IMG/VR virus record: IMGVR_UViG_3300023296_000874
Location: 31,594 to 95,593 of that record
Length of the DNA stretch: 64,000 nucleotides
Direction: 5' to 3' (one strand)
Origin: a virus
Made by a program: the position numbers and the translations under genes. This document shows positions 6,230-24,131 of the stretch, in pieces (the stretch's first letter is position 1; each line of letters starts with the position of its first letter). The notes beneath the pieces are model-generated. The model saw only the letters and a program-made list of their open reading frames with translations, was not told where the DNA came from and did not search any database.

Positions 6230-6307
6230 CGTTTTCTACTCCCTGTTGGTCGTAGAACGTGTGAACCTCCATGAGATCGGCGAACCCGGTTCGCGGTCAT
6301 ACTGGTT

Positions 6308-8059
6308 TCAGGCTGCAGCCGCCGCCACACACTGCTCGGGGTACCACTTGCGGAGCGTGTTGAGGAACTGGTAGCTGAGTTGGTCAGCGGGGCGTCGGCT
6401 CTTCGCCATGCCGGAGGCAACCACCGCAGCGGCAATCCGCTCCACGTCGGCTTCCGTCCACGCGCCTTGGGTCACGAGGGTCACCCAGATGCTGTGGTTG
6501 ATGCCGCGCCTGTAGGGGTTCTCACCCTTCAGGAGGTAGGAGGCAGAGGCCGGGTCAACAGCCGCAACGGGCGGGGCAGCAACCGGCTTGTCGCCGTCCA
6601 CTTCCTTGTAGAGGCCCGCGTAGTCCTTGAGGTTGTTGTAGAACTGGTACCCGATCTGGTCAGCGGGTCGCCGGGTCTTGATCGTGCCCGCGTCAATCAA
6701 CTGCTGAGTCACCGCGTCCACGTCGTCCCGTGTCCACGTACCCAGCGCAACCAACGCAGCCCAGATGCTGAAGTTGATGCCCCGTCGGTACGGGCTCGCT
6801 CCACAGAAGGCGTAGCGCACGGGCGTCGGCACGTTCACCGCGAGGCCTGTGATCACGGTCGCACGGGTCACCGCTGCTGCAACCACGTCACCCGGCATCA
6901 CCGGGTTCTCTTCGGCACGCTCGATGGCCTTGTAGCCACGGGCGGTCTCGATGAACCCCCAGGCAATGCCGTCAGCCGGGCGTCGGGATTTGATCGCGCC
7001 GCTGTCGAGCAGTGCGTCCACCGTGGTCAGGAGGTCGTTGAAGTCGAAGGTGCCACGGGTCACGAGGGCGTCGTAGATGGGGTGGCTACCTGCCCAATGC
7101 TTGTACGGGTTCGGGATGCCTACGAAGCGGTAGCGTGTGCGCGCAGCGTGCTGAACTGCGCGGCCCCCTCGGGTATTACCGTTGGGGGCCGCTGTCTCTC
7201 CGATTGCTTCCTTCTCAAGTGCCACTGCCACGAAGGTTCCAGCTACCTCTTCGGGGCTGCGGCGGGAGGCGAACTTGCCTTGATCCATCAGTCGCCCGGT
7301 GATCACCACAATCTCCCGCATCGTCACTGGGTTCCCGATGGCGTTCAGGGTGTCCCACAACACGTAGCACGAGCCTCGCTGGAAGGGGTTGTCGCCCTTC
7401 ACGAGGTACACCGGGCCGACGGAGGTGCTTGTGCGCTTCCGCTTGCTCGGCTTGGCTCCGTCCCTGGTCACCGCGAGGTACTCGGTGATGAGGGCGTGGA
7501 GGCTCTTCACGCGGTAGTGGATGGTCTCCTTGCGCTTGCCGATGATCCGGCTGATGTCTGCCGGGCGGTAGCCCATGGTCCGCAGGATGAAGGTGGGGAG
7601 GAACGCGGGCTTGCGCTCCGCGATGTACCGAATGAGATCCGATTCCACCACCTCTGCCGGAATGCTGAGCTCCGAGAGGTTGCTGGTCTGCTGCAACCGG
7701 TCGAGGTCCACCGTGCCGCGAGCGGGCTCGGAGTCGTCCGAGGGCACCGAGAGGCTCATGGCGTTGGTGTTGGCGTCCCGGTTGTCCTTCTTCCAGCCGT
7801 TCACGAGGCAGTTCCGGATGGTCGTACCGAGGTACGAACGGAACTGACGCGGAGTCATCAGCCCCGCATCTACCTTCTCCTTCACACGGGGGAAGAAGTT
7901 GGACGCCATGCAGTGAATGATGATGTCCTGGAACTTGTCGTCGATGTCCTCTTCGGGAACCTTCTGTCCACGCAGTCCACCGATGATGTACTTGCGGAAT
8001 GCCATGAGCTGGTTGACGTCCGTCGGGACGAAGTCCGTCTCGGTGTGTGTGCGTGCCAT
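6308..8059 (-). CDS. ECF-type sigma factor domain (regions 2 and 4) fused to a ~370-aa C-terminal extension of four tandem ~65-aa repeats
   Basis: Region 2.x-like FRSYLGTTIRNCLVNGWKKDNRD (cf. FxxWLxxIARNxxIDxxRK). Region 4-like LPTFILRTMGYRPADISRIIGKRKETIHYRVKSLHAL. Four repeats NP[YF][RQ]RG[IS]...W..LV..G.WT..DV......L..SG..K[ST]RRPADQ..YQF. Own promoter-motif copy 36 nt upstream. Confidence 0.7.
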   Translation of the reverse strand: MARTHTETDFVPTDVNQLMAFRKYIIGGLRGQKVPEEDIDDKFQDIIIHCMASNFFPRVKEKVDAGLMTPRQFRSYLGTTIRNCLVNGWKKDNRDANTNAMSLSVPSDDSEPARGTVDLDRLQQTSNLSELSIPAEVVESDLIRYIAERKPAFLPTFILRTMGYRPADISRIIGKRKETIHYRVKSLHALITEYLAVTRDGAKPSKRKRTSTSVGPVYLVKGDNPFQRGSCYVLWDTLNAIGNPVTMREIVVITGRLMDQGKFASRRSPEEVAGTFVAVALEKEAIGETAAPNGNTRGGRAVQHAARTRYRFVGIPNPYKHWAGSHPIYDALVTRGTFDFNDLLTTVDALLDSGAIKSRRPADGIAWGFIETARGYKAIERAEENPVMPGDVVAAAVTRATVITGLAVNVPTPVRYAFCGASPYRRGINFSIWAALVALGTWTRDDVDAVTQQLIDAGTIKTRRPADQIGYQFYNNLKDYAGLYKEVDGDKPVAAPPVAAVDPASASYLLKGENPYRRGINHSIWVTLVTQGAWTEADVERIAAAVVASGMAKSRRPADQLSYQFLNTLRKWYPEQCVAAAAA

Positions 8060-8462: not shown

Positions 8463-9344
8463 TCAGTCGTTCTCCACTACGTTGAGCCTGCCCAGCGCAG
8501 CCTTCTTCTTACCCTCTTCGAGGATCCGCGCCTTTTCGATGTTGGCGGGAGCTGCGTAGCAGTAGGTGCAGGCGTGTGGGCAGGCAAGTGATGTCTGGGT
8601 AGCTACCTCAATGGCGGCTGAGCAACGGCAGTCGTCAACCTTGGGGTGCATCAGCCCCAGGTTGTCTATACCATAGATCTGGTCGATCCAGTAGGCGTTG
8701 ACACACGTAGCCGGTCCAAAGTTGTCCGCAACTCCCCTGAAGGAGTCGTCGTCCCAGCACCCGAGGAGCATCATGTCGTGCTTGTCGAGGATGGCGCACA
8801 TCTGCCGCAAGATCTCCCGGCGCTCGTTTTCGTCACGGGTCTCGGGGATCGCGGTCTCGCTGTGGAGGAAGCTGAAGTAGCACTCCCGCACGCCCAGGTC
8901 GGCCATGAATTGAGCCACCCGCTCGAACTCGCTCCAGTCAGCAGGCACGGGGGAGTAGCGCCACTGCATCTTCTCGACGCCGTACTCTGCCACCATGTCA
9001 GCGAAGCACTGGAGCTGAATGTCCAGCGCAGGCACCTTGAGCTCGGTGGAGGGGTCGCCGCAGATGGTCATCGCAAAGAACTGTCGGTAGTTCGCGTCCA
9101 GCTCGGCGCGTCGTGGGTTCTTGAGGAAGCGTCGGTAGTCCTTGGAGTACCAGAACAGGGAGTGCATGTCCTCGGGAGCGAGGCTCCACCGTGCGGGCAT
9201 CCCAGTCTGAGGGTGTGGCGCGTCGATGTACCCACGGTCCAACCACCGGAAGAATCGCTTCATCCAGAAGGCGGGGATGTCGGTGTTGCGGCTCAAAGTG
9301 ATGGGGAATCCCCACTCGAGCGGCTTCAGGATTTCGGTTGACAT
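8463..9344 (-). CDS. Hypothetical protein with N-terminal TDIPAFW motif and C-terminal CxxxCxxC cluster (putative Fe-S protein; DUF1848-like?, tentative)
   Basis: LSRNTDIPAFWMKRFF near the N-terminus. ACPHACTYCYA near the C-terminus. Confidence 0.55.
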   Translation of the reverse strand: MSTEILKPLEWGFPITLSRNTDIPAFWMKRFFRWLDRGYIDAPHPQTGMPARWSLAPEDMHSLFWYSKDYRRFLKNPRRAELDANYRQFFAMTICGDPSTELKVPALDIQLQCFADMVAEYGVEKMQWRYSPVPADWSEFERVAQFMADLGVRECYFSFLHSETAIPETRDENERREILRQMCAILDKHDMMLLGCWDDDSFRGVADNFGPATCVNAYWIDQIYGIDNLGLMHPKVDDCRCSAAIEVATQTSLACPHACTYCYAAPANIEKARILEEGKKKAALGRLNVVEND

Positions 9345-9365
9345 GGCACCTCCGTTACCTCATGA

Positions 9366-9395
9366 TAACGTACCCAAGGGGGAGGTACTCAGAGG
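9366..9395 (-). promoter_or_regulatory. Promoter-like motif TAACG-N17-CTCAGAGG, 22 nt upstream of ATG 9344, followed by RBS GGAGGTG
   Basis: Motif family. Confidence 0.5.
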
Positions 9396-9604
9396 CTTTT
9401 CACGATTTCAAGTAGAAGAAGCACGGTGGCTCCTACACCTATTACCACGAACACGGCGGCGAACAGGAACCTGCCCCGTTTCTCCTTGGCGATCTCCTCA
9501 TGGAACATCGCGTCGGTGATGTAGCCGTTGGCGGTGTTACCGAGCTCATCGAGCTGTCGCTTAACGGCCCGGTCCCAGCACCCTTGGTAGCCTCGGGCTT
9601 CCAT
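9389..9604 (-). CDS. Small membrane protein (C-terminal TM helix)
   Basis: FLFAAVFVVIGVGATVLLLLEIV. Confidence 0.5.
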   Translation of the reverse strand: MEARGYQGCWDRAVKRQLDELGNTANGYITDAMFHEEIAKEKRGRFLFAAVFVVIGVGATVLLLLEIVKSL

Positions 9605-10182
9605 TATACCGTCATCATCGCGAGGATTGCCATGCCGTCACGCACGATGTCCCCGTGGTCGAAGCCGAAGATGATCTTGCCGGAGCGGATGTCCTCCTCA
9701 TGGATCCAGGCGGTCCAGAAGGCGTCGTCGTCTCCCCGAGCCTTGCGGGCCTCAGCGGGCGTCACACGGCAGCAGTAGGCGAGGCTGACAACGTGGCGGC
9801 GGGGGTCACGGTCGGTGGCTCCGTACACGTCGATGAGCGTCATGAAGTCCCGCTCGAGGCCGGTCTCTTCCTTGAGCTCGCGCGGGGCACAGTCCTTGGG
9901 GTCCTCGCCGTAGTCCACGAACCCGCCCGGAGTGCAGACGAAGCCGTCGGTGTGGCAGTAGGGAGGGTTCGCACGCCCGATGAGCAGGAAGTGTCGTCCC
10001 GCGCGGGTGGGAGCGGGGCCACGACGGTCCACCATCGTGTCGCCCAGCAGAGCGCGTCCCTCTTCCTGCCAGCCCTCCCAGTTGGGCAGGTCGTCCTCGG
10101 GGATGTCGGTAGCGACGAGGATGTCGGTGCAGAGGCTGGAGGTGCGGTAGGTCGGAGCTTCGAGCTGTTCAACGGTTGGCAT
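9604..10182 (-). CDS. NUDIX hydrolase (candidate ADP-ribose/NDP-sugar pyrophosphatase)
   Basis: Canonical Nudix box GGFVDYGEDPKDCAPRELKEETGL (GX5EX7REUXEEXGU). Confidence 0.8.
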   Translation of the reverse strand: MPTVEQLEAPTYRTSSLCTDILVATDIPEDDLPNWEGWQEEGRALLGDTMVDRRGPAPTRAGRHFLLIGRANPPYCHTDGFVCTPGGFVDYGEDPKDCAPRELKEETGLERDFMTLIDVYGATDRDPRRHVVSLAYCCRVTPAEARKARGDDDAFWTAWIHEEDIRSGKIIFGFDHGDIVRDGMAILAMMTV

Positions 10183-10723
10183 TGTAGTCCTTGATGTTCA
10201 GGTTCTTCTGGTCGAAGATGTGTGCGTAGGGGCTGTCAGGCGGTAGGGCTTGAGCCTTGATTGATGCTGCCTTGAAGGCTCTCTCCATGTGGGAGCTCTC
10301 GTCGAGCGCATCGGAGCAGAGTACAAGGATGAAGCGGTCCGTCAGGGGGATACCAGGGCGTGCGGGGATCGCGGCCCACATCTGGAGGAAGGTGCGAGCA
10401 CTGAGCGTCCGGAAGAGGGTCTCCTGATGGTAGTACCCCATGTCCATTTCCATGTAGTCGCTCTTGCGGAGGCTCGGGGCCGCATCAATACCCTTGGTCT
10501 TGAAGTCCTTCAGGGTGAAGTCGGCCGTCGGAATGTAGTGGGCTTGAGTCCGGTACTGATGCCAACTACGAGAGCTTGAAACCTCCATGCTCTCGGTGTC
10601 GAGGCTGTGCGAGGTGGTTGTCCACCGCATTTCACCCCACACCATCTCTTCACGGCTGATCCAGATGTTGAGCCACCGTCCGTCAAGGGACGCACTCCTA
10701 CCTCGATACACACTCGAACCCAT
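10169..10723 (-). CDS. Hypothetical protein
   Basis: 184-aa ORF. Confidence 0.5.
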   Translation of the reverse strand: MGSSVYRGRSASLDGRWLNIWISREEMVWGEMRWTTTSHSLDTESMEVSSSRSWHQYRTQAHYIPTADFTLKDFKTKGIDAAPSLRKSDYMEMDMGYYHQETLFRTLSARTFLQMWAAIPARPGIPLTDRFILVLCSDALDESSHMERAFKAASIKAQALPPDSPYAHIFDQKNLNIKDYNANR

Positions 10724-10735
10724 GTTCCTGGCCTC

Positions 10736-11635
10736 CTATGACCCACTAACGAGGCTGATGCCGAATTCCTCAACTGCAATCTCAGAGTTTGCCGGGGTGC
10801 CAGGTCCGCCACCGCCGATGCGGAACACTGCCTGCCCCATCACACGGGAGCCGAGCATCACCCTGACGCCCCAGTTGCCGGGCTCCGAGGATGGGAAGTG
10901 GTCTTCCACCATCACCTTGTAGCCAGCAAGGCGAGCAAGCGGTCCGGTCTCGGTGTAGTAGATCCCGCCCGAACCGGGTCGGTGAATCTCCATTGAGAAC
11001 TCGATGCCGTCCGTGTCGAAGTCATCAGGGATGTCAGGCCACAGCACCGCAATGCAGAAGTCCTCCACATCGGGGCCGTACATCGGCTCCTCATTCGGAG
11101 GTCCGGGCTGGATGGCGATGCACCCCAGCCGGTCCAGCACTCCATCAGCTTCTGCAAACCGGATGTCCACCCGTCCGAGGGATTCGGCCAACCACTCCAC
11201 GCTGAGCTCAAGCTCGAAGTCGGAGGTGTGGAGCAGGCTCATGTCCGTGGCGTCCAACAGCGTCGCCGTCCACGTCCCGTGCTTCTGAGTGATGTCGGTC
11301 ACCGGAATGACCACGTTCCGCTCGGCCACCTTCGCGCCATACACACCATCACTGTCGGAGTGGGTGAGGAACACGATGTAGGTGGTGTCCGTGTTGTTGA
11401 GGATCTCCACATGCACGCCATCGGGCGTGGGAGTGGTAGTCACGCGCAAGGACTCGTGCCGTGTCTGCGCTGGCTTGGGAGCCGGGGCCGGTGTCCGCCC
11501 GTCAGCAACAGGGGCGACAGGCGCGGGTTCTGGGGCCGCTGTGGGCACGTCCACGTCAAGGTCAATCTCTACCTTGACCTTGCGGGGGCGGACTGCGCCA
11601 GGGCGGACGGGAGTGCGGGAATTCCACTTGGGCAT
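10736..11635 (-). CDS. Hypothetical protein with a Pro/Ala-rich N-terminal region (start likely MPKWNS)
   Basis: ORF track; low-complexity linker PTAAPEPAPVAPVADGRTPAPAPKPA. Confidence 0.5.
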   Translation of the reverse strand: MPKWNSRTPVRPGAVRPRKVKVEIDLDVDVPTAAPEPAPVAPVADGRTPAPAPKPAQTRHESLRVTTTPTPDGVHVEILNNTDTTYIVFLTHSDSDGVYGAKVAERNVVIPVTDITQKHGTWTATLLDATDMSLLHTSDFELELSVEWLAESLGRVDIRFAEADGVLDRLGCIAIQPGPPNEEPMYGPDVEDFCIAVLWPDIPDDFDTDGIEFSMEIHRPGSGGIYYTETGPLARLAGYKVMVEDHFPSSEPGNWGVRVMLGSRVMGQAVFRIGGGGPGTPANSEIAVEEFGISLVSGS

Positions 11636-11702
11636 TGTTGGTCCTCTTTCAGTCAAAAGACAAAGCTGGACCAAGAAAGGGCGAGGAGTTCGAAACCCTC
11701 AC

Positions 11703-12098
11703 CTACGCTTCAAGAAGCAGCTCGATCCGGTCCACGTCAGTTTCGTTCCACGGGTTGATGTCCACGTCTTGAATCAGACGCCACCTACGCGGAGGCCAGT
11801 TGGTGGCGACACGTCCATAGTCGCAGCCACCTTCATCGTTGCGCTCAAACGTGTAGATGTTCCGGGCGGTTACGCACGCTCCAGTCCGATAGGACCCAGA
11901 GGGAGCCACGTGAGTCACAATGCCGTAGCCTTCACCGTATCCGGTCCCCATGAACCACATCTGTCCGGGGCGGGGTAGGTCGGTGAACTCAGGAGCGCGG
12001 GAGCAGAGCTCGAACCTCTCTTGAGGCATGGCGTCCCGGTGCTTGTTGCAGAACACACAGGTCCAATCTGTCGATCGGATGTGGTGGGGTCCTCTCAT
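11703..12098 (-). CDS. Hypothetical protein; C-terminus ...VDRIELLLEA (recurrent terminal motif)
   Basis: ORF track. Confidence 0.5.
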   Translation of the reverse strand: MRGPHHIRSTDWTCVFCNKHRDAMPQERFELCSRAPEFTDLPRPGQMWFMGTGYGEGYGIVTHVAPSGSYRTGACVTARNIYTFERNDEGGCDYGRVATNWPPRRWRLIQDVDINPWNETDVDRIELLLEA

Positions 12099-12418
12099 TC
12101 AGGGTCCTCCGAGCGTTTCGGCCACTTGAGCCAGTAGATGACTTGAACAAAGGCAACGACAAGCAGCGGTAGGCTGAACACCATCCGATTCTCTTCCATG
12201 ATGGTCGCTCGGTCGTTCCCGCGCAAGTCGTCCAGACGCAGCATCACCACCAAATAGAACACCGTCAGAAGGGCTATGGGCACTGCGAGTCCCGCTACTA
12301 CCTGCCAGGGCAAAAGCTCTACGACATACACGAAGCCGAAGAGAGACAGGACGAGCATCCCGATGCACCAAACGGTCCGGCACGCGATGATCAGCGTTTT
12401 GGCCAGGAACTCGGTCAT
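12095..12418 (-). CDS. Integral membrane protein (3 TM helices)
   Basis: Strongly hydrophobic; preferred over the overlapping frame 12099..12473. Confidence 0.55.
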   Translation of the reverse strand: MTEFLAKTLIIACRTVWCIGMLVLSLFGFVYVVELLPWQVVAGLAVPIALLTVFYLVVMLRLDDLRGNDRATIMEENRMVFSLPLLVVAFVQVIYWLKWPKRSEDPE

Positions 12419-12894
12419 GCCGAGGCTTCTCCGTAGGCAGTGCAGAAGTGCTGGATGAGGCTGGTGATCGCAACCTGCTGGATGTCGGGGCAGCTACCCC
12501 ACACGGGACACCACTGGTGACACGGGTGTCCGACCTTGCCGTAGTCGGGGGCGTAGAAGGAGGCGATCTTCACGAGTGCCTCTGCCACGTCAGCGACGGT
12601 GTTCACGTCCGATACCTGACGCCTGAACCTCCGGATGTTGAACTTGCGCCCGACACCCTTCTGCTGGCCGTCAACCACCCGGATGGAAGTCACCTCGACG
12701 CCTTGAAGGTCGGGCTCGTAGTCGGTCACCATTCCGAGCAGCGTGGCGCGTACCACGTCACGGGTCATGGGAGCCGCAACCTCAAACTCCTCGGGGAGGT
12801 CCAGGTTCTGTTCACGTCCCGCGAGTAGCCGGTCAATCTCCTTGGGGAGCTCACCGTGCCAAAATGCGGGTCCTGTCATGCCGTTGATGCGCAT
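12415..12894 (-). CDS. Hypothetical protein with C-terminal Cys cluster (CHQWCPVWGSC); possible nuclease-like fold (speculative)
   Basis: ORF track. Confidence 0.45.
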   Translation of the reverse strand: MRINGMTGPAFWHGELPKEIDRLLAGREQNLDLPEEFEVAAPMTRDVVRATLLGMVTDYEPDLQGVEVTSIRVVDGQQKGVGRKFNIRRFRRQVSDVNTVADVAEALVKIASFYAPDYGKVGHPCHQWCPVWGSCPDIQQVAITSLIQHFCTAYGEASA

Positions 12895-12897
12895 AGC

Positions 12898-13269
12898 TCA
12901 TCCTTCCATCAGTAGTGTCATCCTATCAGGATGAGACGCTTCTTGAGCGCGGTTCGCGGCTACGAGATAGTGAGCGTAGTCGCCGCCAGCCCTCTCGATG
13001 ATTCCAACCCAATCGCCGTGATAGATCACAGCCGCCCTTCGGTACGCCTCATCCTTCTTCATGAGCCGGGTGACTGTACCGGGAACGGTGCGCCACTCGC
13101 AGCTCTCGGGTCCGGTGTCCCACCTACACTCAATCCGAAGGTTGAGCAGGTCCTCGTGACCCATGTGAGCGTAGCGGTTGCGGATGATCACCCGGACGAT
13201 GTTGTTCGCCCCCCGGATGTGCCAACGCTTCTCGGTGATGTCAGGATTCTCAGGTAAGTCCAAGGGCAT
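12898..13269 (-). CDS. Hypothetical protein; C-terminus ...PDRMTLLMEG (recurrent terminal motif). Start uncertain (13269 or 13296)
   Basis: ORF track; upstream gene ends 13250. Confidence 0.45.
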   Translation of the reverse strand: MPLDLPENPDITEKRWHIRGANNIVRVIIRNRYAHMGHEDLLNLRIECRWDTGPESCEWRTVPGTVTRLMKKDEAYRRAAVIYHGDWVGIIERAGGDYAHYLVAANRAQEASHPDRMTLLMEG

Positions 13270-13498
13270 CAACTCTCTCCTGTTCGGCTTCGTCATCCCA
13301 GTGCATGTGCAGAAGGCGGCGGGAAGGGCTTGACTCATCGAGCCCTTTGGCGTCCATCTCCTCCACCATTGCCCAGGTGAAGCTGCATGTGCCGTGTCCT
13401 TCTGCATACACGGTCACACCCTCGGGAATCTCCTCGATGATCTCTGCCATCACGAAGTCGTTGATGGGGTTCCAGAACACCCGTACCATTCGTGCCAC
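13250..13498 (-). CDS. Hypothetical acidic protein
   Basis: ORF track. Confidence 0.45.
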   Translation of the reverse strand: MARMVRVFWNPINDFVMAEIIEEIPEGVTVYAEGHGTCSFTWAMVEEMDAKGLDESSPSRRLLHMHWDDEAEQERVDALGLT

Positions 13499-13729
13499 TC
13501 AAACCTCCATCAACAGTTCAAGACGGTCGACGGGGTCAGCCCACCCTATGAACTCCCAGCCGTGCTCATAGTTCCCCATGGGCAGGTCACCTACGCACCA
13601 GTAGTCACCGTTCGCATCCCTAATCCGAGCACCGAAGTTCTCGGGATAGGTCAACACGACTGTTCCGGTAAGGTCGTGCCATGGTCCCACGAAGTGAATG
13701 ATCATGCCCACCTCAGGTCCACGCTCCAT
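13499..13729 (-). CDS. Hypothetical protein; C-terminus ...VDRLELLMEV (recurrent terminal motif)
   Basis: ORF track. Confidence 0.5.
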   Translation of the reverse strand: MERGPEVGMIIHFVGPWHDLTGTVVLTYPENFGARIRDANGDYWCVGDLPMGNYEHGWEFIGWADPVDRLELLMEV

Positions 13730-14167
13730 TCAGTCCTCCTCGTCGTCAGCGAACAGCATCTTCAGCCTGAAGGCGTTGCCGTCCCGACATGCGGTACAGA
13801 GGCCTTCACCATCGTCCATGAAGGTCGTGCCGCACTTGCACTCGTTGATCTCGAGTCTTGTGGATCGGGCAGCACGTAGACGTGGCTCGAAGGGGTGCTT
13901 GTTGTACGGGCCTGGCTTCCACTCAGAGTCTCCGCACTCGTGCTTGTCAGAGTTGAAGATGGTCTCGTTGCAGAGCTCACACTCCCTGACGTTGATGCCT
14001 ACCGCCGTGCGGATCTGATAGAACTTCTGGCACTTGCCGCAGTACCCGTTCTCCACGTCGCCGGGTGACCATGAAGTCATCTTGCAGACGCCACAAAGGA
14101 TAGCCTGCCCATCCTCAACGATTGTCATCCAATCGTCGTAGGGCTGCCGTCCCAGAGATTGCACCAT
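13730..14167 (-). CDS. Cys-rich protein with multiple zinc-ribbon-like CxxC pairs. Start revised to MVQSLGRQ
   Basis: CGVC..CGKC..CELC..HEC..CKC..CTAC. The ORF-track N-terminus overlaps the upstream gene. Confidence 0.5.
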   Translation of the reverse strand: MVQSLGRQPYDDWMTIVEDGQAILCGVCKMTSWSPGDVENGYCGKCQKFYQIRTAVGINVRECELCNETIFNSDKHECGDSEWKPGPYNKHPFEPRLRAARSTRLEINECKCGTTFMDDGEGLCTACRDGNAFRLKMLFADDEED

Positions 14168-14207
14168 GAAGGGTCTTCGCCTTCGGTGTGGTGGGTCGTT
14201 GGGCATC

Positions 14208-14501
14208 TCAGAACTCGTTCCCGAATCGGCTCCGTCGGTTGCGTTGAGCCTCTTCGTGGTCACGGGCGCGCTCTGCCTTCTCTTCAGCGGCTTCGGCTGC
14301 AGCCGCTTCGACGGCCTCAAGGCCGGGCCAGTTGAGGATCTGCCCGGTAGCAGCGTTGATCTCCAGCTCGAGGTAGTCACCGCCACCGATGCCAATGCCA
14401 GAGGGCACGTAGCCGTCATGGTCACTGCCATCGGGCCAGGTGATGCCGCACATGTCGCTCACCTTGCCGTTCACATGAATGGTCTTGATCTCGTCGCTCA
14501 T
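14208..14501 (-). CDS. Hypothetical protein
   Basis: ORF track. Confidence 0.45.
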   Translation of the reverse strand: MSDEIKTIHVNGKVSDMCGITWPDGSDHDGYVPSGIGIGGGDYLELEINAATGQILNWPGLEAVEAAAAEAAEEKAERARDHEEAQRNRRSRFGNEF

Positions 14502-15229
14502 CCTCTCACCTCAGCGGGCAGTCCTGCGGGGATGCCCAGAAGGTCGCAGAGCTCACTCTCGGAGCTCACGACGTTGACGCCCCATGCTGGAAACACGTTG
14601 CGAAGGAAGTTGTTGTGGTGGATGCGCTTGAAGTCACCCACCAGGAAGCTGGGCACCACAACCTGATAGCCCATGGCGGTCGCCCGCTGCACGATGGAGC
14701 TCACCACGATGTGCGTCACGAAGCCGCCCACAACCACGCACACCTGGAGCGGGTGAAGGCCTTCATGCAAGCCCTCGAGCTGCTCCTTCAGGTCGGTCTC
14801 GAAGAAGCTGTCGAAGGTGGTCTTGGCGATTCGGTAGTCGATGTAGGGCGCAACGGCGTCCACCACTTCGGCCTCGAAGGAGTTCTCGTCAGCGTGCTCG
14901 CCGTACACGGCAAGCTCCTTCATCTGGAGCGGGTCGTTCCAGTTGTGGCTGTCGATGGTGGCGAGCTGGGGAATGTCCGCACGCTTCAACGTCTGCGCCC
15001 ACACCCCGAGGTGGTCACCCATCAGAGCGAGGTTGCGCTCACCGATGTGGAGCGCCGGGTAGCCGTCACCGCGCATCTTGCTCTTCTCAGAGTCAGGGAT
15101 CTCAGCAGCGGTGCAAGCGAACGCCTTGGTGGCATCTGCCCAAACCATGATGGTCATCTGCGGGCTCACCGGCCCACCCATGGAGGGGATGTTGAGGTCG
15201 GGGAAGTACTCAGCGTTGGGCGTGGGCAT
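14498..15229 (-). CDS. Isochorismatase-fold-like protein (tentative; catalytic Cys not evident at the expected position)
   Basis: LQVCVVVGGFVTHIVVSSIVQRATAMGYQVVV resembles the isochorismatase/cysteine-hydrolase core strand-helix. Confidence 0.35.
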   Translation of the reverse strand: MPTPNAEYFPDLNIPSMGGPVSPQMTIMVWADATKAFACTAAEIPDSEKSKMRGDGYPALHIGERNLALMGDHLGVWAQTLKRADIPQLATIDSHNWNDPLQMKELAVYGEHADENSFEAEVVDAVAPYIDYRIAKTTFDSFFETDLKEQLEGLHEGLHPLQVCVVVGGFVTHIVVSSIVQRATAMGYQVVVPSFLVGDFKRIHHNNFLRNVFPAWGVNVVSSESELCDLLGIPAGLPAEVRG

Positions 15230-15237
15230 TGTTGCTC

Positions 15238-15495
15238 CTACAGCAGTTCGGTGAGGAACCGTGGATCTTCGTTGTCGGTTTTGGGTGAAGGGAACTCCAC
15301 CTCTACATCCAGGGACACCTGGATGATGGAGATTCGGGAGGGGTCAACCTCTTCGAAAGCTTCAGAATCGAAGTGACGCCCGTTCTGCTCCTCGAGGTAG
15401 TGCTCCAAAGGAGTGCGAGTGCCATGCACCACACGCCCCTTCACACGGATGAGGTCTCGGGTCTTCAGGTCGATGAGTGCGTAGCCGTCAGTCAT
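15238..15495 (-). CDS. Hypothetical protein
   Basis: ORF track. Confidence 0.45.
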   Translation of the reverse strand: MTDGYALIDLKTRDLIRVKGRVVHGTRTPLEHYLEEQNGRHFDSEAFEEVDPSRISIIQVSLDVEVEFPSPKTDNEDPRFLTELL

Positions 15496-15767
15496 TCGAA
15501 TTCCACCTCGTTGTCGGCATTCTCAGCCCACAACTCTGCAATCTCAGCACGGTCTTCAGCAGACAGGCCGAGGGTTTCCCACAAAGACTCCGGTACAGAG
15601 TCCAGCTCTTCGCCCTCACCGCTGTCGTAGATGTTGTCAAGCAACGACCACTCCGAAACTTGTAGGTGATTGGGGTCTTCATCAACACACCACCCCTGAC
15701 GGAGGTAAGCCCTTCCGGCATCTGATAGTGCATCCAGCCCGAATACGAGCTTCTTGCTACGTGACAT
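15492..15767 (-). CDS. Hypothetical acidic protein (start revised to MSRSKK)
   Basis: The ORF-track N-terminus overlaps the upstream vWA gene. Confidence 0.4.
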   Translation of the reverse strand: MSRSKKLVFGLDALSDAGRAYLRQGWCVDEDPNHLQVSEWSLLDNIYDSGEGEELDSVPESLWETLGLSAEDRAEIAELWAENADNEVEFE

Positions 15768-15774
15768 GCTTCCC

Positions 15775-16521
15775 TCAGTCGTGGCAGGTTGCTCCGAGAT
15801 CAACGAGGATCTCTTCCATCTCAGCATCCGCGCCGCCCTCGCGGAGCTCATCAGCGTACTCGTCCAGTCCGCCACCGGCAGCCTTGGCTACGGCGATCAT
15901 CGTGGTCGCGAGGTTGTTGATGTTGCGGATGTCGATCATCACGCCACCGGAGTCGGTAGCCATCGTGGTCCACGTCGCCCGAGCCGCTGGGTCAGGACCA
16001 CACAGCGCCATGTAGAAGGTCGCATCGTCCTTGACGGCGGCGAGCTCTGTCTGCCAGTTGAGGCCGTGGGGGTTGTTCCCGTAGGGTCCATTGCTCAGCG
16101 CGTGCGGAGGTGCGTCGCCTACCCACATGACGATCAGCTCGTCGCCCGCAGCCTTGGCGTGGGGCACATGGTAGGAGCGGAGGTAGCGGAGCACGTACTC
16201 CACGCACTCAGGGTGGTCACCGCCGCTGGTCGAGCGGTTGGCGGCGAGCCAGCGCTCGATGGAGCTCGAGTCGTAGAAGAAGCTCAGGTCTGCGGTCTCT
16301 GCCTCGCCCGGTACCTGTCCCGTGTAGGAGAAGGATGGGTTGGTGGAGTCCTGGATCATGTTGGTCCGGTCGCAGTAGTCACCGTAGGCCAGGAAGCCTA
16401 CCTCTGCATCTTCATCCTCGTCGAGGACACGGCCAGCGATCAGTGCGACGTTGTTGCGCACCTCTCGGATCCAGGAGTTCATGGAACCCGTGGTGTCGAA
16501 CACAAACAGAAAGCGTCTCAT
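15775..16521 (-). CDS. von Willebrand factor type A (vWA) domain protein
   Basis: MIDAS motif FVFDTTGSM (DxTGS) at the N-terminus; vWA-like length and secondary-structure pattern. Confidence 0.65.
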   Translation of the reverse strand: MRRFLFVFDTTGSMNSWIREVRNNVALIAGRVLDEDEDAEVGFLAYGDYCDRTNMIQDSTNPSFSYTGQVPGEAETADLSFFYDSSSIERWLAANRSTSGGDHPECVEYVLRYLRSYHVPHAKAAGDELIVMWVGDAPPHALSNGPYGNNPHGLNWQTELAAVKDDATFYMALCGPDPAARATWTTMATDSGGVMIDIRNINNLATTMIAVAKAAGGGLDEYADELREGGADAEMEEILVDLGATCHD

Positions 16522-16844
16522 GAAACTACCTCGTCGCGGGTCGCCAGCACATGGGTAGCCGCCTTGATCTTGAACAGGGAGATGTCACGCAGCTCATCGG
16601 GGAGCTGCTCGGCCTTGGTGCAGAAGTAAGCCGACACGGTGTCAAGGTCCTTGCCCGTGATCGCGCGGCTGTTCTCCAGCAGTGTGAGCTCGTCGCGGAG
16701 TGCGTCCACCACAATCTCACCAAAGGTCTTCTGAGGGTCGCCAATGGAAGGCTTCCCTTCCAGGCTACCGGTCACTTGTCCGAAGATCAGGCTGTGATAG
16801 CAGTTGGCGGGCGTCATTTCCCGCACGGTCTTGTAGTCGAGCAC
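16518..16844 (-). CDS. Hypothetical protein
   Basis: ORF track. Confidence 0.45.
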   Translation of the reverse strand: MLDYKTVREMTPANCYHSLIFGQVTGSLEGKPSIGDPQKTFGEIVVDALRDELTLLENSRAITGKDLDTVSAYFCTKAEQLPDELRDISLFKIKAATHVLATRDEVVS

Positions 16845-16884
16845 ATGGCCTCCATTTGGTCACAGGACGTGCCTGACTTGCGTT

Positions 16885-17571
16885 TCAGGCCTCGAATTCT
16901 GCGTTGTGATCGTACTCGGGGCTACCCGGAGGGTGGCTGGCCTCGATGATCTGCTGCAAAGCGTTCGGCTCGATCTCATAGACGGGGTCGTGGATGATCA
17001 CGGTCACCACACGCCGTCCACCGAACCAGCGCGCCTTCTTCTGAGTGGGCTCACCGTCCTTGCGGCTCCAATGCGAGCCCCACAACCCTGAGATCGTCAC
17101 CGGGAGCACTGGGGCCACGTATCCGCCGTCGTGCATGGTGGGTCTCATGTAGTTGTAGCCCTGTCGCATCTGCTGGATGCCCGTAGCCTCCTCTCGGAGC
17201 CCGCCTTCGGGGAACACCACGATGCACTCACCGTCCATCAGGCGCTCTTGGGCAGTCTGGATGGTCTGGTTGCAGAGGAACCGGTCCACGCTTCGGGGCA
17301 CAGCGGGTAGACAGCCAGCCAAGGAGAACAGCCACTTGGCTCGGTCGTAGTGGACGTGCCACAAGAGCGAGGTGACGGGTACCTTGAAAGCTGCCATCAC
17401 GAACAAGAAGTCCGCGTAGGTGACGTGGTTCGGCGCAATGACGAACGGACGCCCCTTGGGAACCTTGTCCCGCCCCTTGACGTCCACCTTGTAGAAGGGG
17501 ATCATGAGCAGTCGAAGTACGGGCCACACCATCCAGAAGAAGGCGAGACGTGCAAAGCGGCGTCGGTCCAT
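16885..17571 (-). CDS. Lysophospholipid/1-acyl-glycerol-3-phosphate acyltransferase (PlsC/AGPAT family)
   Basis: Motif I NHVTYADF (NHxxxxD), FPEGG motif, hydrophobic N-terminus. Confidence 0.7.
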   Translation of the reverse strand: MDRRRFARLAFFWMVWPVLRLLMIPFYKVDVKGRDKVPKGRPFVIAPNHVTYADFLFVMAAFKVPVTSLLWHVHYDRAKWLFSLAGCLPAVPRSVDRFLCNQTIQTAQERLMDGECIVVFPEGGLREEATGIQQMRQGYNYMRPTMHDGGYVAPVLPVTISGLWGSHWSRKDGEPTQKKARWFGGRRVVTVIIHDPVYEIEPNALQQIIEASHPPGSPEYDHNAEFEA

Positions 17572-17758
17572 GATCTCTCAGTCTCCTTGAACAATCAACA
17601 GCAGAGCAGCAAGCGAAGAGAAGGGGATGTGGCCCTCCTCACAGTCCTTGACTGAGTTCCGTATGAGGAGGGCAACGCCACCCCCATGAACCACAGCCCG
17701 CTTCTCAAGGAGCGACAAGATGGCCTCGTTGGATACCACCACAAGTTCGGTGCCGGTC

Positions 17759-18730
17759 TCAATCACCGAAGAAGTCCTTCGCCCACTCGAACTGGAAGCC
17801 CGCCCGTGCCGCAAAGGTCTGGTCGCTCTTCATGTCGCCCACGTAGATGCAGGCGTCCGGGTTGAGCTTGTACTTCTCGATGAACACGACGCCCATGCCT
17901 GCCATCGGCTTGCGCCAGTAGGAGCTCGGGGGTCCACCACGGTCAGGGGCGAACAGGTACTCGATGTCATGTCCGAGCTGCCGGTTGGTCTCATCGAAGC
18001 AGTCGCGGCAGGTGACGTCGCTGACGTACTTGGGGCTGTCCGAGGCTTGGCTCACACCGCTCTGGTTGCTGATGCCCAGGATCCGGTAGCCCTTGTCGAT
18101 GTACTCCTGGATGATGGCGGTACGTCCCTCCAGAGCGCGCACGTCCCCGATCTCCTTGGGGTAGTGGTCACCACTGTTGGTCAGGCGCAACGTGCCGTCG
18201 TAGTCGAGCAGCAGAGCCTTCCCCGTGTACTCGGAGCCGAAGTCGGTCACCACGTCCACTTCTTCGATGCTGTCGAAGCCCTCGGCCATGGTCGGGTCTT
18301 CGAACTGCTTCCAGTACGCAAACTGAGCCATGGGCGGGAACATGTTCGGGTTCTTGCGGTGCTTCTTGTACTCGGCCTTGCCGAAGAGCACACCGAACTT
18401 CTGGATCTGACGCCGGGCCGCAAAGAGCTGAGCCTGCTCACGGGTGGTCTGTAGCCACAGCACGCGGACAGGTAGGTTGAGCTGCCTTGCGTTCACCATC
18501 AGGCCCCGGCGTGCGGCGACGTTCCGGTAGGTGTTGTCAAGCACGAAGCGGCGCTTCCCGCGCTTGTACTGCTCCTGCATCACCTTGTAGATCTTGCTGT
18601 CGGGACTGTTCAGCTTCCCGCCGATCTCGTCACGGTTGATGCGGGTGTAGCCCTGCTTCACGAGGGATTGGACGTGCGTGGTCTTCCCGCCGCCCGGAGG
18701 TCCCATGACAATGACGATTTCGTGTTCCAT
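17759..18730 (-). CDS. Polynucleotide 5'-kinase/3'-phosphatase (Pnkp-like)
   Basis: N-terminal P-loop GPPGGGKTT. C-terminal HAD motifs LLLDYDGTL (DxDGT) and YVGDMKSD. Confidence 0.85.
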   Translation of the reverse strand: MEHEIVIVMGPPGGGKTTHVQSLVKQGYTRINRDEIGGKLNSPDSKIYKVMQEQYKRGKRRFVLDNTYRNVAARRGLMVNARQLNLPVRVLWLQTTREQAQLFAARRQIQKFGVLFGKAEYKKHRKNPNMFPPMAQFAYWKQFEDPTMAEGFDSIEEVDVVTDFGSEYTGKALLLDYDGTLRLTNSGDHYPKEIGDVRALEGRTAIIQEYIDKGYRILGISNQSGVSQASDSPKYVSDVTCRDCFDETNRQLGHDIEYLFAPDRGGPPSSYWRKPMAGMGVVFIEKYKLNPDACIYVGDMKSDQTFAARAGFQFEWAKDFFGD

Positions 18731-18988
18731 TCAATCCTCGAGTAGTAGCGCGAGCCTGTCCACTTCTTGTACAGGTGGTTCAACAACCTCAGGAGCCAGT
18801 TCGCGCGGTTCGTAATAGCCCGTCGTCCCGTCGTCATGACGGACGGTGAACACCGCGCCGTGCCCGTTCTTCAATCGGGTGATAATTCCGTACACGCCCC
18901 ACTTCCTCGAGAGGAGTGCTTCGGGCATCCAGTCATTCGATATGGACTCAGGGCGCACGGTGAGCACGCGGTCGTTCACGGCAATCAT
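18731..18988 (-). CDS. Hypothetical protein; C-terminus ...VDRLALLLED (recurrent terminal motif)
   Basis: ORF track. Confidence 0.5.
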   Translation of the reverse strand: MIAVNDRVLTVRPESISNDWMPEALLSRKWGVYGIITRLKNGHGAVFTVRHDDGTTGYYEPRELAPEVVEPPVQEVDRLALLLED

Positions 18989-19407
18989 ACTCCAATCTCC
19001 AGGTATGGGTTCTGAGGATCATTCGTGTTGGTGATGGCGATGATGCCGTCCAAATCTCTGAAAATGGTAGCCATCACTTCGTCGTAGGTGTTCCGGTTGA
19101 TGATCTGGTCCCTGTGCTTGAGGCACTGACCCTCCGCGAGGAGGATGTCAGGGGTGTACCGCTCCATGGTGGAGGGCCTCCTGTCCAAGACGAGGAGCAG
19201 CCTCTTGTCCTCGTTGTTCGCCAGTTCGCGCCACCGAAGCAGGTACGCTGACCGGACCTGGTACATGGACAGCAACGAGGTCATTTCGACGTTGAGGTCT
19301 GCCCTTGCAGCCTCGGTAGCTGCAAGGGTTTGCATGGCTCCTTCTGACACCCCCTCTTCCGGAGGGGGGTCAATCTCAAGTAGGAGGTGAAGCCTATCGA
19401 GAGCCAC
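18985..19407 (-). CDS. Hypothetical protein. Probable GTG start giving N-terminus VALDRLHLLLEIDPPPEEG (motif shared with 1198/1712 paralogs); alternative ATG at 19335
   Basis: The ORF-track N-terminus overlaps prs. GTG at 19405-19407 immediately precedes the DRLHLLLE motif. Confidence 0.4.
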   Translation of the reverse strand: MALDRLHLLLEIDPPPEEGVSEGAMQTLAATEAARADLNVEMTSLLSMYQVRSAYLLRWRELANNEDKRLLLVLDRRPSTMERYTPDILLAEGQCLKHRDQIINRNTYDEVMATIFRDLDGIIAITNTNDPQNPYLEIGV

Positions 19408-20380
19408 CCCAGCCTCGCGGGAGGTGGTGAAGCACGGAGTCCACCAACACCGGAGCGCATCGCATGATGCGGAAGATGCCGGAGGTGCCTGGCTTGTCAA
19501 GGGTGTTCACCATCTTCACGGCGCGCGGGTGGCTGTCAAAGGAGTACACCGCGTCGAGTACGCCGTCGAACATGGCGTGCGTGTCGGCGGGGCTCTTGGT
19601 GTAGACGCCGTGGCTCAGGATCGCGCTGACGCCAATGGCACCCGCGTCCATGTAGCTCTTCGCTCCACCCACGAGGCTGCTACCGCTCCGGGTCATGTCG
19701 TCCACGAGGATCACGTACTTGCCCTTGACGTCGGCGCTGACGTTGGTCACCTCGGTGGTCCCGCCGTCGATGCGTCGCTTGCCGATGAAGGCCGGGAGCC
19801 AGCCACCCATCTCGGAGGCGATGTACTCCACACGCTTCGCACCACCGGCATCAGCGGAGCCAATCACGGCATCAGCGACGCCCTGCTCAGCCACGATCTC
19901 GCGGATCGCGTCGAGGATGATCGGCTGTCCACGAGAGTGGATCTGGTGGGCTCGGTCTCCGAAGTAGTGGGGGATGCCCTCTGCATGGAGATCGAGGAAC
20001 ACGATCCGGTTGCCGTTGTAGGCCTCGGGGATGGCGCTGAGCAGCCGGGCGCGCGTCTTGGCAGTCACCACCTCACGCGTCTTGGGCTTGGCGCGCTCCA
20101 TGGTGCTGTACCCGAAGTAGGGGATCACGATGGTCAGAGAGCGAGCTCCGTAGGCCACAATCGCGCAGCAAGCGTCGAACATCTCCATCGTGTCGTTGTC
20201 GTTGATGGTGCCGCCGAGGTACACCACGTCACGGTCACGCACTGAGGTTTCGATGCGCTGGTACCGCTCCCCGTCAGGGAAGGTCTTGATCAGCACCTCG
20301 CCCCGGTCGAAGCAGGGGTCTACGTCAACAAACGTAGGGGCGAGGTACTCGTAGCTTCGGGTAGCAAAGAGAAGAGGCAC
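19394..20380 (-). CDS. prs: Ribose-phosphate pyrophosphokinase (PRPP synthetase) family; could alternatively be an ADP-ribose pyrophosphokinase (Adps)-type homolog
   Basis: IPYFGYSTMERAKP (Prs N-domain), GSADAGGAKRV, PRPP-binding loop VILVDDMTRSGSSL. Confidence 0.8.
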   Translation of the reverse strand: MPLLFATRSYEYLAPTFVDVDPCFDRGEVLIKTFPDGERYQRIETSVRDRDVVYLGGTINDNDTMEMFDACCAIVAYGARSLTIVIPYFGYSTMERAKPKTREVVTAKTRARLLSAIPEAYNGNRIVFLDLHAEGIPHYFGDRAHQIHSRGQPIILDAIREIVAEQGVADAVIGSADAGGAKRVEYIASEMGGWLPAFIGKRRIDGGTTEVTNVSADVKGKYVILVDDMTRSGSSLVGGAKSYMDAGAIGVSAILSHGVYTKSPADTHAMFDGVLDAVYSFDSHPRAVKMVNTLDKPGTSGIFRIMRCAPVLVDSVLHHLPRGWGGSR

Positions 20381-20393
20381 GTTGGTTCTCCTT

Positions 20394-21581
20394 TTAGAGG
20401 ACGCTCTCTACGATACGAACGTAGAGGTCATCCAGCTTGTCCATGTCGGGGCTGTAAGGTAGCACGGGAGTGAGCTCGGGAAGGGGCTCGAGGCCCTTCT
20501 TCACCCGCGCAGTCACACGCTGCTTCTCGGTACCGTAGTACGATGTGTAGATGTCACCGAGAGCGGCGTTCTCGCGATCAGCCCAGTCCACCAACTCGTC
20601 GTAGGTCCAGGCACCCTTGCGGATAGCGAGGAGCTCTTCACGGTCGATCCCGCCGCGCCACACATGCACCTTGCCCGTCGTCAAGATCTCCCGTCCCATG
20701 CGGAGCAGGCGAACGAGGTGGGCACCGTGCTTGGTGTCGTAGCCGGAGGCAGCTTCCAGCGCAGCCCGCTTGGGGTTCCGCTGACGCTTCCAGGTCTCGA
20801 AGCTCTTCCAGTTCTTTTGGGCGTCCTTGTACCGCTTCTCACCCTTGAGGGCCTCGAGCAGTCCTTCGTCGATCCCGATGGAGCGTGCGGCAGCAATCCA
20901 CAGTTCATCGTCGGTGGTCACGCCGATGGTGGCGAGGGTCTCAGCGATGTTGTCCTTGGCGCGGATCTTCTCGCTGTCGGCCATTTCGCCGAAGTCCCAC
21001 TTCCACTCGTCAAGCTGCTTGTCGATGGCGGCGAGGAGCACGTTGCGCTGATGCTGCGTCACCACTTCCTCACCGAGGCCAAACTCCTCGCGGGTCGGCT
21101 TGTGGGTCGGAGGGTTGAGCAACCAGGCCCGGTGTCCCTTGATGCGCTTGAGCTGCTGGAAGGCGTAGCCGGTGAAGCGGTGCTTGGCGGCTCCACTCAG
21201 GAAGAGGTCCCGGTGTTCGCGGAGCAACTGCCCGGCCCAGTTGTGCATGAGCAGCTCTTCGTCGCGGCAGAAGAGCACGTCGAGCATTCCGGGGTTGCAG
21301 TCGGCGGTCAGCTTCATGAACTTGCCGAGGCCGTACACGACGCCCTCGAGCTTCTCGCGTTCGGCGGCGTCCATCTGCTCGGCGTCGAGGTACTTGCGGA
21401 AGGGTTCCATCTGCCCAGGCTTGTCGCACTGGTCGAAACGCTTGCGGAAGGTCAAGTGGTACGGACGTGGAGGTAGGCAGACGCCCTTGAGGTCTACGTC
21501 CGAAGTGTCGGTGTGGAGCCCGTAAGCTCGGGAACCAGCCACTCCAACGAGGATCGCAGAGTCATGTAGGTCGAAATCCAT
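20394..21581 (-). CDS. Pol-beta-superfamily nucleotidyltransferase with a large helical C-terminal domain
   Basis: GVAGSRAYGLHTDTSDVDLKGV ([GS]-x9-13-DxD). 13-nt spacing to prs implies co-transcription. Confidence 0.7.
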   Translation of the reverse strand: MDFDLHDSAILVGVAGSRAYGLHTDTSDVDLKGVCLPPRPYHLTFRKRFDQCDKPGQMEPFRKYLDAEQMDAAEREKLEGVVYGLGKFMKLTADCNPGMLDVLFCRDEELLMHNWAGQLLREHRDLFLSGAAKHRFTGYAFQQLKRIKGHRAWLLNPPTHKPTREEFGLGEEVVTQHQRNVLLAAIDKQLDEWKWDFGEMADSEKIRAKDNIAETLATIGVTTDDELWIAAARSIGIDEGLLEALKGEKRYKDAQKNWKSFETWKRQRNPKRAALEAASGYDTKHGAHLVRLLRMGREILTTGKVHVWRGGIDREELLAIRKGAWTYDELVDWADRENAALGDIYTSYYGTEKQRVTARVKKGLEPLPELTPVLPYSPDMDKLDDLYVRIVESVL

Positions 21582-21604
21582 TGTGGCCTCCTTGCACAGC
21601 TATA

Positions 21605-21635
21605 CAACGCCACGAAGGCCCTGAAAGTCAGATAC
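21605..21635 (-). promoter_or_regulatory. Promoter-like motif, weaker (CAACG-N17-GTCAGATAC), upstream of the NTase-prs operon
   Basis: Motif family. Confidence 0.35.
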
Positions 21636-23918: not shown

Positions 23919-24131
23919 CTAAGCCGAGCCGTACTTGTACGACTTGAACATCTGGTACTCGGTGTCCTCAATGAAGCCAAGCGCCCCGAGGGCCTTCTTG
24001 TCCTCGTCACTCACCGAGTCGTACTCCACGCCCACCTGCATCACGTCGTGTTCACAGTGAGTGGGCCACTTCGTGTCGGTGTACTTCCCAAAGATGGTGA
24101 AGGCAGCGATCAGTTCTTCGCATCCGGTCAT
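23919..24131 (-). CDS. Hypothetical small protein
   Basis: ORF track. Confidence 0.4.
   Translation of the reverse strand: MTGCEELIAAFTIFGKYTDTKWPTHCEHDVMQVGVEYDSVSDEDKKALGALGFIEDTEYQMFKSYKYGSA

Follow-up and report, generated by a model that had tools for sequence, protein, structure and literature searches.

The stretch analysed here comprises 64,000 nucleotides of the IMG/VR virus record IMGVR_UViG_3300023296_000874 (positions 31,594 to 95,593; hereafter the window), and our subject is a group of its genes that encode a Nudix hydrolase, a phosphoribosyl pyrophosphate (PRPP) synthetase homolog (Prs), a type II phosphoribosyltransferase (PRTase), a PncA-like protein and an NrtR-like protein. 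Depletion of NAD+ is widely used against phages, and experiments have characterised three pathways, NARP1-3, by which phages reconstitute it. We consider it probable, if not strongly so, that these genes form a dispersed set for deamidated (Preiss-Handler) NAD+ salvage in a jumbo phage.

The window is phage-like, with nearly all genes on the minus strand, including those for PolA, a DnaB-like helicase, topoisomerase, ClpP and a lysyl-tRNA synthetase (LysRS), and neither transfer RNAs nor Rfam RNAs were found in it. Its source contig is 113.6 kb long. Because both the PRTase and the Nudix protein have identical counterparts encoded on a contig of 257.5 kb, we place the window within a jumbo-phage genome. 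No close relative was found among deposited phage genomes, with megablast of positions 9000-21600 against phage records returning no match, and an IMG/VR scan using the window Prs protein did not recover a relative. Comparisons were made with phage relatives represented by five long contigs (L003, L005, L098, L099 and L100) and by short contigs carrying the NAD synthetase gene nadE (L105, L106 and L112). The NAD-related genes of the window are dispersed over ~26 kb:

9604-10182, minus strand: stand-alone Nudix hydrolase of 192 amino acids with an intact Nudix box; putative ADP-ribose pyrophosphatase (ADP-ribose to AMP and ribose-5-phosphate)
19394-20380, minus strand: Prs paralog of the 'STMER', NAD-salvage-linked clade (TIGR01251 and clade membership); putative PRPP synthase feeding the PRTase
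28844-30415, minus strand: divergent type II PRTase, nicotinate-PRTase-like (TIGR01513; 2f7f); putatively nicotinate plus PRPP to nicotinate mononucleotide
34356-35081, minus strand: PncA-like nicotinamidase (PF00857, 4.9e-8), directly downstream of the NrtR-like gene; putatively nicotinamide to nicotinate
35084-35743, minus strand: NrtR-like regulator with a degenerate Nudix domain (NUDIX, 2.9e-5) and a C-terminal NrtR winged helix (NrtR_WHD, 9e-4); putative ADP-ribose-responsive repressor

In the proposed route, nicotinamide would be converted to nicotinate by the PncA-like enzyme, and the PRTase would join nicotinate to PRPP to give nicotinate mononucleotide (NaMN), the PRPP being made from ribose-5-phosphate and ATP by the dedicated Prs paralog. 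NaMN would then pass through nicotinate adenine dinucleotide (NaAD) to NAD+ by the action of NadD and NadE, which would be supplied by the host or by phage genes lying outside the window and are partly phage-encoded in relatives. The stand-alone Nudix enzyme would split ADP-ribose (ADPR) into AMP and ribose-5-phosphate and return the ribose moiety to Prs, a plausible feed by which part of the ribose-5-phosphate for PRPP would derive from ADPR, and the NrtR-like protein would tie expression to ADPR. The observations themselves are assignments to families and clades, motifs, neighbours in fold, the contexts of the genes, and synteny; from these we infer the enzymatic activities, the flux from Nudix to Prs, the control by NrtR and any role in counter-defence.

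The Prs open reading frame (ORF) encodes 328 amino acids and contains both strings, IPYFGYSTMERAKP and VILVDDMTRSGSSL, on which an initial annotation of the window had based its call of a PRPP-synthetase-family enzyme. That call is borne out by Pfam matches to Pribosyltran_N (1.1e-16), Pribosyltran and Pribosyl_synth, by a score above the cut-off of the NCBIfam model TIGR01251 ribP_PPkin (146.9 bits versus 113) and by PRPS enzymes as best matches in the Protein Data Bank (PDB; 1e-26). The class I Prs features FxDGE, DLH, catalytic-loop KRR and the DD ribose-binding pair are retained and invariant in the clade. The flexible-loop RQDR and the PP-loop DTGGT are absent, with STMER in place of ARQDR and DDM(T/I)R(S/T)G in place of DDMIDTG; these substitutions occur in all 17 clade members aligned, with T93, M94, E95, R96 and R231 invariant. 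A C-terminal tail, HHLPRGWG (window 19394-19440; P0002-P0006), is present in all phage members of the clade and in no bacterial member.

In a neighbour-joining tree (Kimura distance, 36 sequences, 200 bootstrap replicates), the ADP-ribose pyrophosphokinases (Adps), the canonical Prs proteins and the 'STMER' proteins each formed a group with 100% bootstrap, and the window protein grouped with its phage relatives (94%) inside the STMER group. The initial annotation had asked whether the homolog belongs with bona fide Prs or with Adps; it lies in neither, occupying this third clade. Identity is ~45-50% to bacterial STMER paralogs, a large family of ~307 amino acids, as against 28-29% to the Prs proteins of E. 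coli, Enterococcus and Acinetobacter, and 17-27% to the Adps controls from ICP1 (the structurally characterised enzyme), Kuttervirus, Vequintavirinae and a Gordonia phage.

We examined 80 bacterial loci carrying STMER-type Prs (L018-L097; Cytophagales and other Bacteroidota, and Myxococcota), with the prs gene at about 6001-6900 of each. At least one NAD gene (pncB, nadE, nadV, pncA or nrtR) lies within 6 kb of prs in 42 of them, with pncB in 29/80, nadE in 18/80 and nadV in 7/80, and typical gene orders are pncB-prs-nadE(-nrtR-pncA) and nrtR-nadV-prs. The nadV genes adjoining bacterial STMER-type prs encode the NAMPT-type helix GMGGALLQKxDRD and not the adenine clamp of Namat, so these partners are expected to be PRPP users. 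Because its bacterial clade members sit in NAD salvage operons, the window protein is, by clade and context, a dedicated NAD-salvage Prs paralog and not the housekeeping type without a NAD link that the initial annotation had weighed. NCBIfam has no model dedicated to the STMER clade, and we found no characterisation of it in the literature searched; it constitutes a large uncharacterised group of NAD-salvage Prs proteins in Bacteroidota and Myxococcota, whose active-site deviations merit enzymology.

The PRTase is the sole type II PRTase in the window and lies 8.5 kb upstream of Prs. Its best family is the NAPRTase (nicotinate PRTase) model TIGR01513 (E 1.2e-24; 87 bits versus a cut-off of 297), nine more NAPRTase models match below their cut-offs, and PF04095 scores 20.3 against a cut-off of 20.8. 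A phmmer search of the PDB returned NAPRTs only (E. faecalis 2f7f, 1.3e-9; human 4yub), with zero NAMPT or Namat entries. Its AlphaFold model has a predicted local distance difference test score (pLDDT) of 93.3, and Foldseek placed 2f7f (5e-18) and 4mzy (4e-17) first, the NAMPTs trailing by five orders of magnitude; TM-scores were low (~0.33, root-mean-square deviation ~21 Å) despite strong E-values, and the ranking alone was used. BLAST gave 2e-7 to Rhodocytophaga PncB and E >= 2 for four Namat proteins and one bacterial NadV-like protein, and phrog_448, used as the NAMPT test, reached merely 9e-5. G250, T251, G253 and H254 of the GTxGH motif are invariant, its histidine being presumably a significant residue in the NAPRT family, and the C-terminal pattern VYKL...K...PG is present. 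Its homologs, from metagenome-assembled genomes of Myxococcota, Desulfobacterota and Acidobacteriota, make up a divergent family that carries the annotation nicotinate PRTase, and the Desulfatibacillum homolog clusters with an isochorismatase-family gene and nrtR. Judged from its sequence, the protein is a divergent member of the NAPRT family and not an equivalog. Its putative use of nicotinate and PRPP draws support from context, namely the PncA-like gene and the NadE of relatives.

These results bear on the main model of the initial annotation, in which the Nudix enzyme yields ribose-5-phosphate, Prs makes PRPP, a NAMPT-family enzyme forms nicotinamide mononucleotide (NMN) from PRPP and nicotinamide, and host NMNAT completes NAD+, in the manner of NARP2. 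The type II PRTase fold does match NAMPT structures significantly (3e-13 for the best), and the seven bacterial loci that pair STMER Prs with NAMPT-type nadV show that this Prs type fits an amidated route. Nevertheless, the PRTase is nearer to NAPRT by hidden Markov model (HMM), BLAST and Foldseek; tblastn with eleven Namat or NadV queries found no other candidate in the window; searches by tblastn and Pfam, the latter across almost every ORF of at least 150 amino acids, found neither NAMPT nor NMNAT there; and a nicotinamidase-like gene and NadE, the latter in all relatives, are needed only in the deamidated route. We therefore regard the NMN route as improbable, and the expectation of a NAMPT-family enzyme is not supported.

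The second proposal of the initial annotation was a variant of NARP1, in which the Prs homolog pyrophosphorylates ADPR as Adps does and the PRTase joins the pyridine base to the resulting ADPR pyrophosphate (ADPR-PP) as Namat does. Both enzyme superfamilies are present, most phage clusters are without NadD, and the changes in the Prs clade touch the RF-loop and PP-loop regions, both of which are remodelled in Adps (PMC13586617). In Adps the PP loop has become DDICDxAAS and carries an aromatic cap, and helices alpha11-alpha12 are lost, leaving about 280 amino acids (PMC13586617). The controls accordingly read VDDICDG(A/G) and end early, whereas the window protein reads DDMTRSGSSLVG, has no aromatic cap and continues into a C-terminal extension; with its separate, fully supported clade, these features led us to reject it as an Adps. 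The selectivity-clamp helix of Namat follows GSx(phi)x(phi)x(phi)TRD with aromatic residues (PMC12774641), and a search for GSxxxxxxTRD as a regular expression found it in 4/4 Namat controls and in neither the window PRTase nor its relatives. The missing clamp speaks against the PRTase being a Namat, and the HMM, BLAST and Foldseek rankings place it nearer to NAPRT than to NAMPT. Adps adjoins Namat in 97% of cases, whereas no Namat gene adjoins Prs in the window and the nearest PRTase, 8.5 kb off, is NAPRT-like, a separation that the initial annotation had itself remarked upon and that stands. The partners in the bacterial clade, moreover, are canonical PncB or clamp-less NadV, and an active ADPR pyrophosphatase would destroy the ADPR substrate. 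We give the NARP1 variant very little credence.

Upstream of the PRTase lie the PncA-like and NrtR-like genes. The PncA-like protein has nicotinamidases as all three top PDB matches of its family profile (2h0r, 5.3e-9; 1ilw, 1.4e-8; 29iv, 1.5e-7), and it retains the Asp, Lys (EKEVYSAF) and Cys (GGFCV) triad as well as the DSH...PTHAV metal-site residues, so we annotate it as a putative nicotinamidase. The adjacent regulator matches the NCBIfam model NF050029, 'ADPR responsive transcriptional repressor', at 1.9e-17, below the cut-off, and its Nudix box is degenerate (GAFVKPN...RRSLRRY, with RRSLRRY replacing REUXEEXGU). The two genes are adjacent in the window and in L003, L099 and L100. No description of a phage-encoded NrtR was found in the literature searched. 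The phage protein might sense ADPR released by host NADase defences and turn on the phage salvage genes, a proposition that we treat as possible but doubtful.

The relatives share a common gene order, [NrtR-PncA]-PRTase-NadE-(RlaP)-(Prs)-vWA-like-Cys-less isochorismatase-...-Nudix-(DUF1848). NadE follows the PRTase in all five long relatives and in the three short contigs, a NadD-like gene of the cytidylyltransferase fold occurs in one long relative (L005) and in L112, and three of these five long relatives also encode Prs, there adjacent to or after NadE. An enzyme such as NadE serves a purpose only if the pathway passes through a deamidated intermediate (NaAD or NaMN), and the presence of NadE in relatives together with the nicotinamidase-like gene therefore argues for a Preiss-Handler route rather than one from nicotinamide to NMN. 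Where the relatives hold NadE, the window holds LysRS, a 737-amino-acid protein and other genes; a metagenome scan with a NadE profile returned 9 loci, zero of them from the 257-kb contig.

The Nudix ORF matches the Pfam family NUDIX (PF00293) with E 1.5e-16 and 61 bits (cut-off 21), and its GFVDYGE-DPKDCAP-RELKEETGL stretch is a full GX5EX7REUXEEXGU box, in agreement with the canonical Nudix box reported in the initial annotation. RDPR and (L)AFDH motifs are kept across the family. Among NCBIfam models, NrtR and the NadM-Nudix ADPRase domain come nearest, although the protein scores far short of either cut-off. In a Foldseek search with its AlphaFold model (pLDDT 93.8), the top match was the Nudix domain of S. 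oneidensis NrtR bound to ADPR (3gz8, 1.8e-11), and further neighbours included other NrtR-like proteins, the NUDT9H domain of the TRPM2 chanzyme, which hydrolyses ADPR, and ADPR pyrophosphatases of the NadM type. The protein thus combines an intact box with placement in the NrtR/NadM clade of ADPR-binding Nudix domains, features of an ADPR pyrophosphatase, and on these grounds that activity is our best guess: the enzyme most likely hydrolyses ADPR to AMP and ribose-5-phosphate. The gene is present in 5/5 long relatives and accompanies the PRTase in all six phage contigs; close homologs are limited to the same phage lineage, and distant ones are small hydrolases with generic annotation. The putative link of the gene to Prs and NAD salvage draws on homology, on fold and on the synteny conserved among the relatives. 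In L003, L005 and L098 the Nudix gene has a conserved neighbour on its downstream side, which encodes a DUF1848 protein with a CxxxCxxC cluster at the C-terminus; in the window (8463-9344, minus strand) a 71-amino-acid ORF sits between the two.

The Nudix and Prs genes might also be functionally unlinked, Prs boosting PRPP generally and the Nudix enzyme serving in housecleaning, RNA decapping or the degradation of an immune signal. Such a reading accords with their separation by 9 kb, in different transcription units with many genes of no known function between them, with DUF1848 rather than a NAD gene as the constant neighbour of Nudix, and with the generic annotation of the more distant Nudix homologs. 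Genes of RNA-repair type abound in the region (RlaP, PNKP, R2K ATP-grasp and SPFH), and 38/80 bacterial loci of the Prs clade have no NAD gene nearby. On the other side, the Prs clade is strongly enriched beside NAD salvage genes and Prs directly follows NadE in phage relatives, the fold neighbours of the Nudix protein are overwhelmingly ADPR binders or hydrolases, and Nudix and PRTase occur together in all six phage contigs. We judge the absence of any functional link to be rather unlikely, though it carries real weight.

Several observations weigh against the deamidated route that we favour. NadE and NadD were not found in the 64-kb window by the tblastn and Pfam scans described above, leaving the route incomplete there, and L099 and L100 lack Prs in the region fetched. 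The PRTase falls far below the NAPRTase cut-offs (87 versus 297 bits) and also matches NAMPT folds significantly, which leaves its predicted specificity for nicotinate tentative. The Adps study lists six substrate-coordinating residues common to PRPS and Adps (PMC13586617), and the whole STMER clade swaps two of these six (RQ of YARQDR to TM; D of DDMIDTGGT to R). Because of this alteration, PRPP synthase activity is an assumption on our part; the most economical reading is that the homolog would be a PRPP synthase, perhaps without classical allosteric control. Between Nudix and Prs lie 9 kb and ~15 unannotated genes, and a Pfam scan of ten small ORFs in this interval gave no match. The co-occurrence of Nudix and PRTase is synteny inside one phage lineage and not independent evidence. 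No NrtR operator was found when GT-N7-AC palindromes were sought upstream in the window and relatives, each region having a different inverted repeat.

The active-site changes also allow a shortcut. If STMER Prs proteins are not plain PRPP synthases, they could act with the NAPRT-like enzyme and NadE to pass from ADPR through ADPR-PP and NaAD to NAD+ without NadD. This would explain why most phage clusters hold NadE but not NadD, and we nevertheless think it very improbable.

With the Preiss-Handler reading retained, the proposal of the initial annotation that NADase waste is recycled to NAD+ survives in part. NAD salvage genes, a NAD-linked Prs and an ADPR-type Nudix are in place; the route itself would run from nicotinamide through nicotinate, NaMN and NaAD to NAD+, and not through NMN.

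The closest bacterial parallel is provided by NrtR operons (nrtR-prs-nadV; pncB-prs-nadE-nrtR-pncA; PMC2330246), which share with the window the Prs clade, an NrtR-like regulator, a PncA-like gene and a PRTase. Rodionov et al. (2008) described an NrtR-regulated second prs paralog in bacteria and proposed cleavage of ADPR by Nudix enzymes as the source of Rib-P for PRPP (PMC2330246). In contrast to these operons, the window set is encoded by a jumbo phage, is spread over ~26 kb instead of forming one operon, has a divergent PRTase in place of canonical PncB, adds a stand-alone Nudix of the catalytic type and lacks NadE. Among phages, Preiss-Handler clusters of pncB-nadD-nadE have been reported bioinformatically in 'NAD-jumbo phages' (PMC11662467). 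By gene content these resemble the window in encoding deamidated NAD+ synthesis, and the window relatives hold PRTase-NadE, one with an added NadD-like gene; that report makes no mention of PRPP, Nudix or NrtR and refers to pncA in passing, and the window is without nadD and nadE.

The proposed route differs from each of the NARP pathways. NARP1 (Adps + Namat; bioRxiv 2024.02.11.579819, PMC13586617, PMC12774641) likewise uses a phage Prs-superfamily enzyme and a type II PRTase, with ADPR and nicotinamide as the likely inputs in both cases, whereas the window Prs belongs to another clade, has a full-length C-terminus and no Adps PP loop, the Namat clamp is missing, the two genes are not adjacent, and the context of window-type clusters includes nicotinamidase and NadE. 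NARP2, represented by NadV + NatV of KVP40 (Nampt + NMNAT-Nudix), also sets a NadM-clade, ADPRase-type Nudix alongside a PRPP-dependent PRTase; the window Nudix is stand-alone and not fused to NMNAT, and the window yielded no Nampt or Nmnat. NARP3 consists of PnuC + NadR (PMC13464706). Phage Preiss-Handler clusters and the 2008 proposal of a bacterial path from ADPR through Rib-P to PRPP were already known. What appears new in a phage is the predicted combination of a dedicated Prs paralog, an NrtR-like sensor, a nicotinamidase, a stand-alone ADPRase-type Nudix and a divergent PRTase family. A nicotinate-route module of this kind would give phages a further way to recycle both products of immune NADases, would bring its own PRPP supply, nicotinamidase, ADPR-type Nudix and ADPR-sensing regulator, and would suggest that phages can sense ADPR.

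Further features of the locus are a second isochorismatase-fold gene, the gene upstream of Prs and a recurrent promoter-like motif:

14498-15229, minus strand: isochorismatase-fold protein without the nucleophile Cys (GGFVTHIVV; PF00857, 4.4e-15), a member of the conserved block
20394-21581, minus strand: RlaP-family Pol-beta nucleotidyltransferase of an RNA-repair-type family (PF10127, E 1.1e-16; phrog_388, 7e-51), co-transcribed with Prs
21603-21632, minus strand: promoter-like motif upstream of RlaP-Prs (TCTGACTTTC-N13-GGCGTTGTA)
30441-30470, minus strand: the same motif upstream of the PRTase
35791-35820, minus strand: the same motif upstream of NrtR-PncA

The isochorismatase-fold protein at 14498-15229 was rejected as a nicotinamidase, because replacement of the nucleophile Cys by Val precludes a cysteine-hydrolase nicotinamidase; the residue is Val or Ile in all phage copies. 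Its 60-75% identity in 5/5 relatives indicates that the protein is under selection.

The initial annotation had placed Prs in an operon with a Pol-beta nucleotidyltransferase, and we concur: the GTG start of Prs lies 13 nt past the stop of RlaP, with an AAGGAG ribosome-binding site in the gap. The same order, RlaP before Prs, recurs in L005 and L098 and is not seen in L003. The bipartite motif, TCT(A/G)A(C/G)TT(T/C)C-N13-(G/C)GTT(A/G)(T/A)N, has six coding-strand copies against 0.14 expected in shuffles, all of them on the minus strand, intergenic and upstream of minus-strand genes (35820-35791, 30470-30441, 21632-21603, 8123-8093, 1202-1173 and 44940-44911). It heads three transcription units of interest, NrtR-PncA, PRTase and RlaP-Prs. 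Since unrelated genes are also preceded by it, we interpret the motif as a promoter class and not a regulon, probably one belonging to the phage.

Interspersed among the NAD genes, and likewise on the minus strand, are genes of RNA-repair type: PNKP (17759-18730), comprising a P-loop kinase and an HAD phosphatase, RlaP (20394-21581), an R2K ATP-grasp protein (24128-24949) and an SPFH/Band-7 protein (31422-32540). The LysRS at 27224-28717 (minus strand) is full-length and scores 614 bits to NF001756. A block at 36524-40010 (minus strand) encodes two MprF-C-terminal-like (LPG_synthase_C) proteins, an S-adenosylmethionine (SAM) methyltransferase and a pyridoxal phosphate (PLP)-dependent enzyme (PALP), and parts of it are seen again in L003 and L100. 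Together with LysRS, this block may constitute an aminoacyl-tRNA-dependent modification module.

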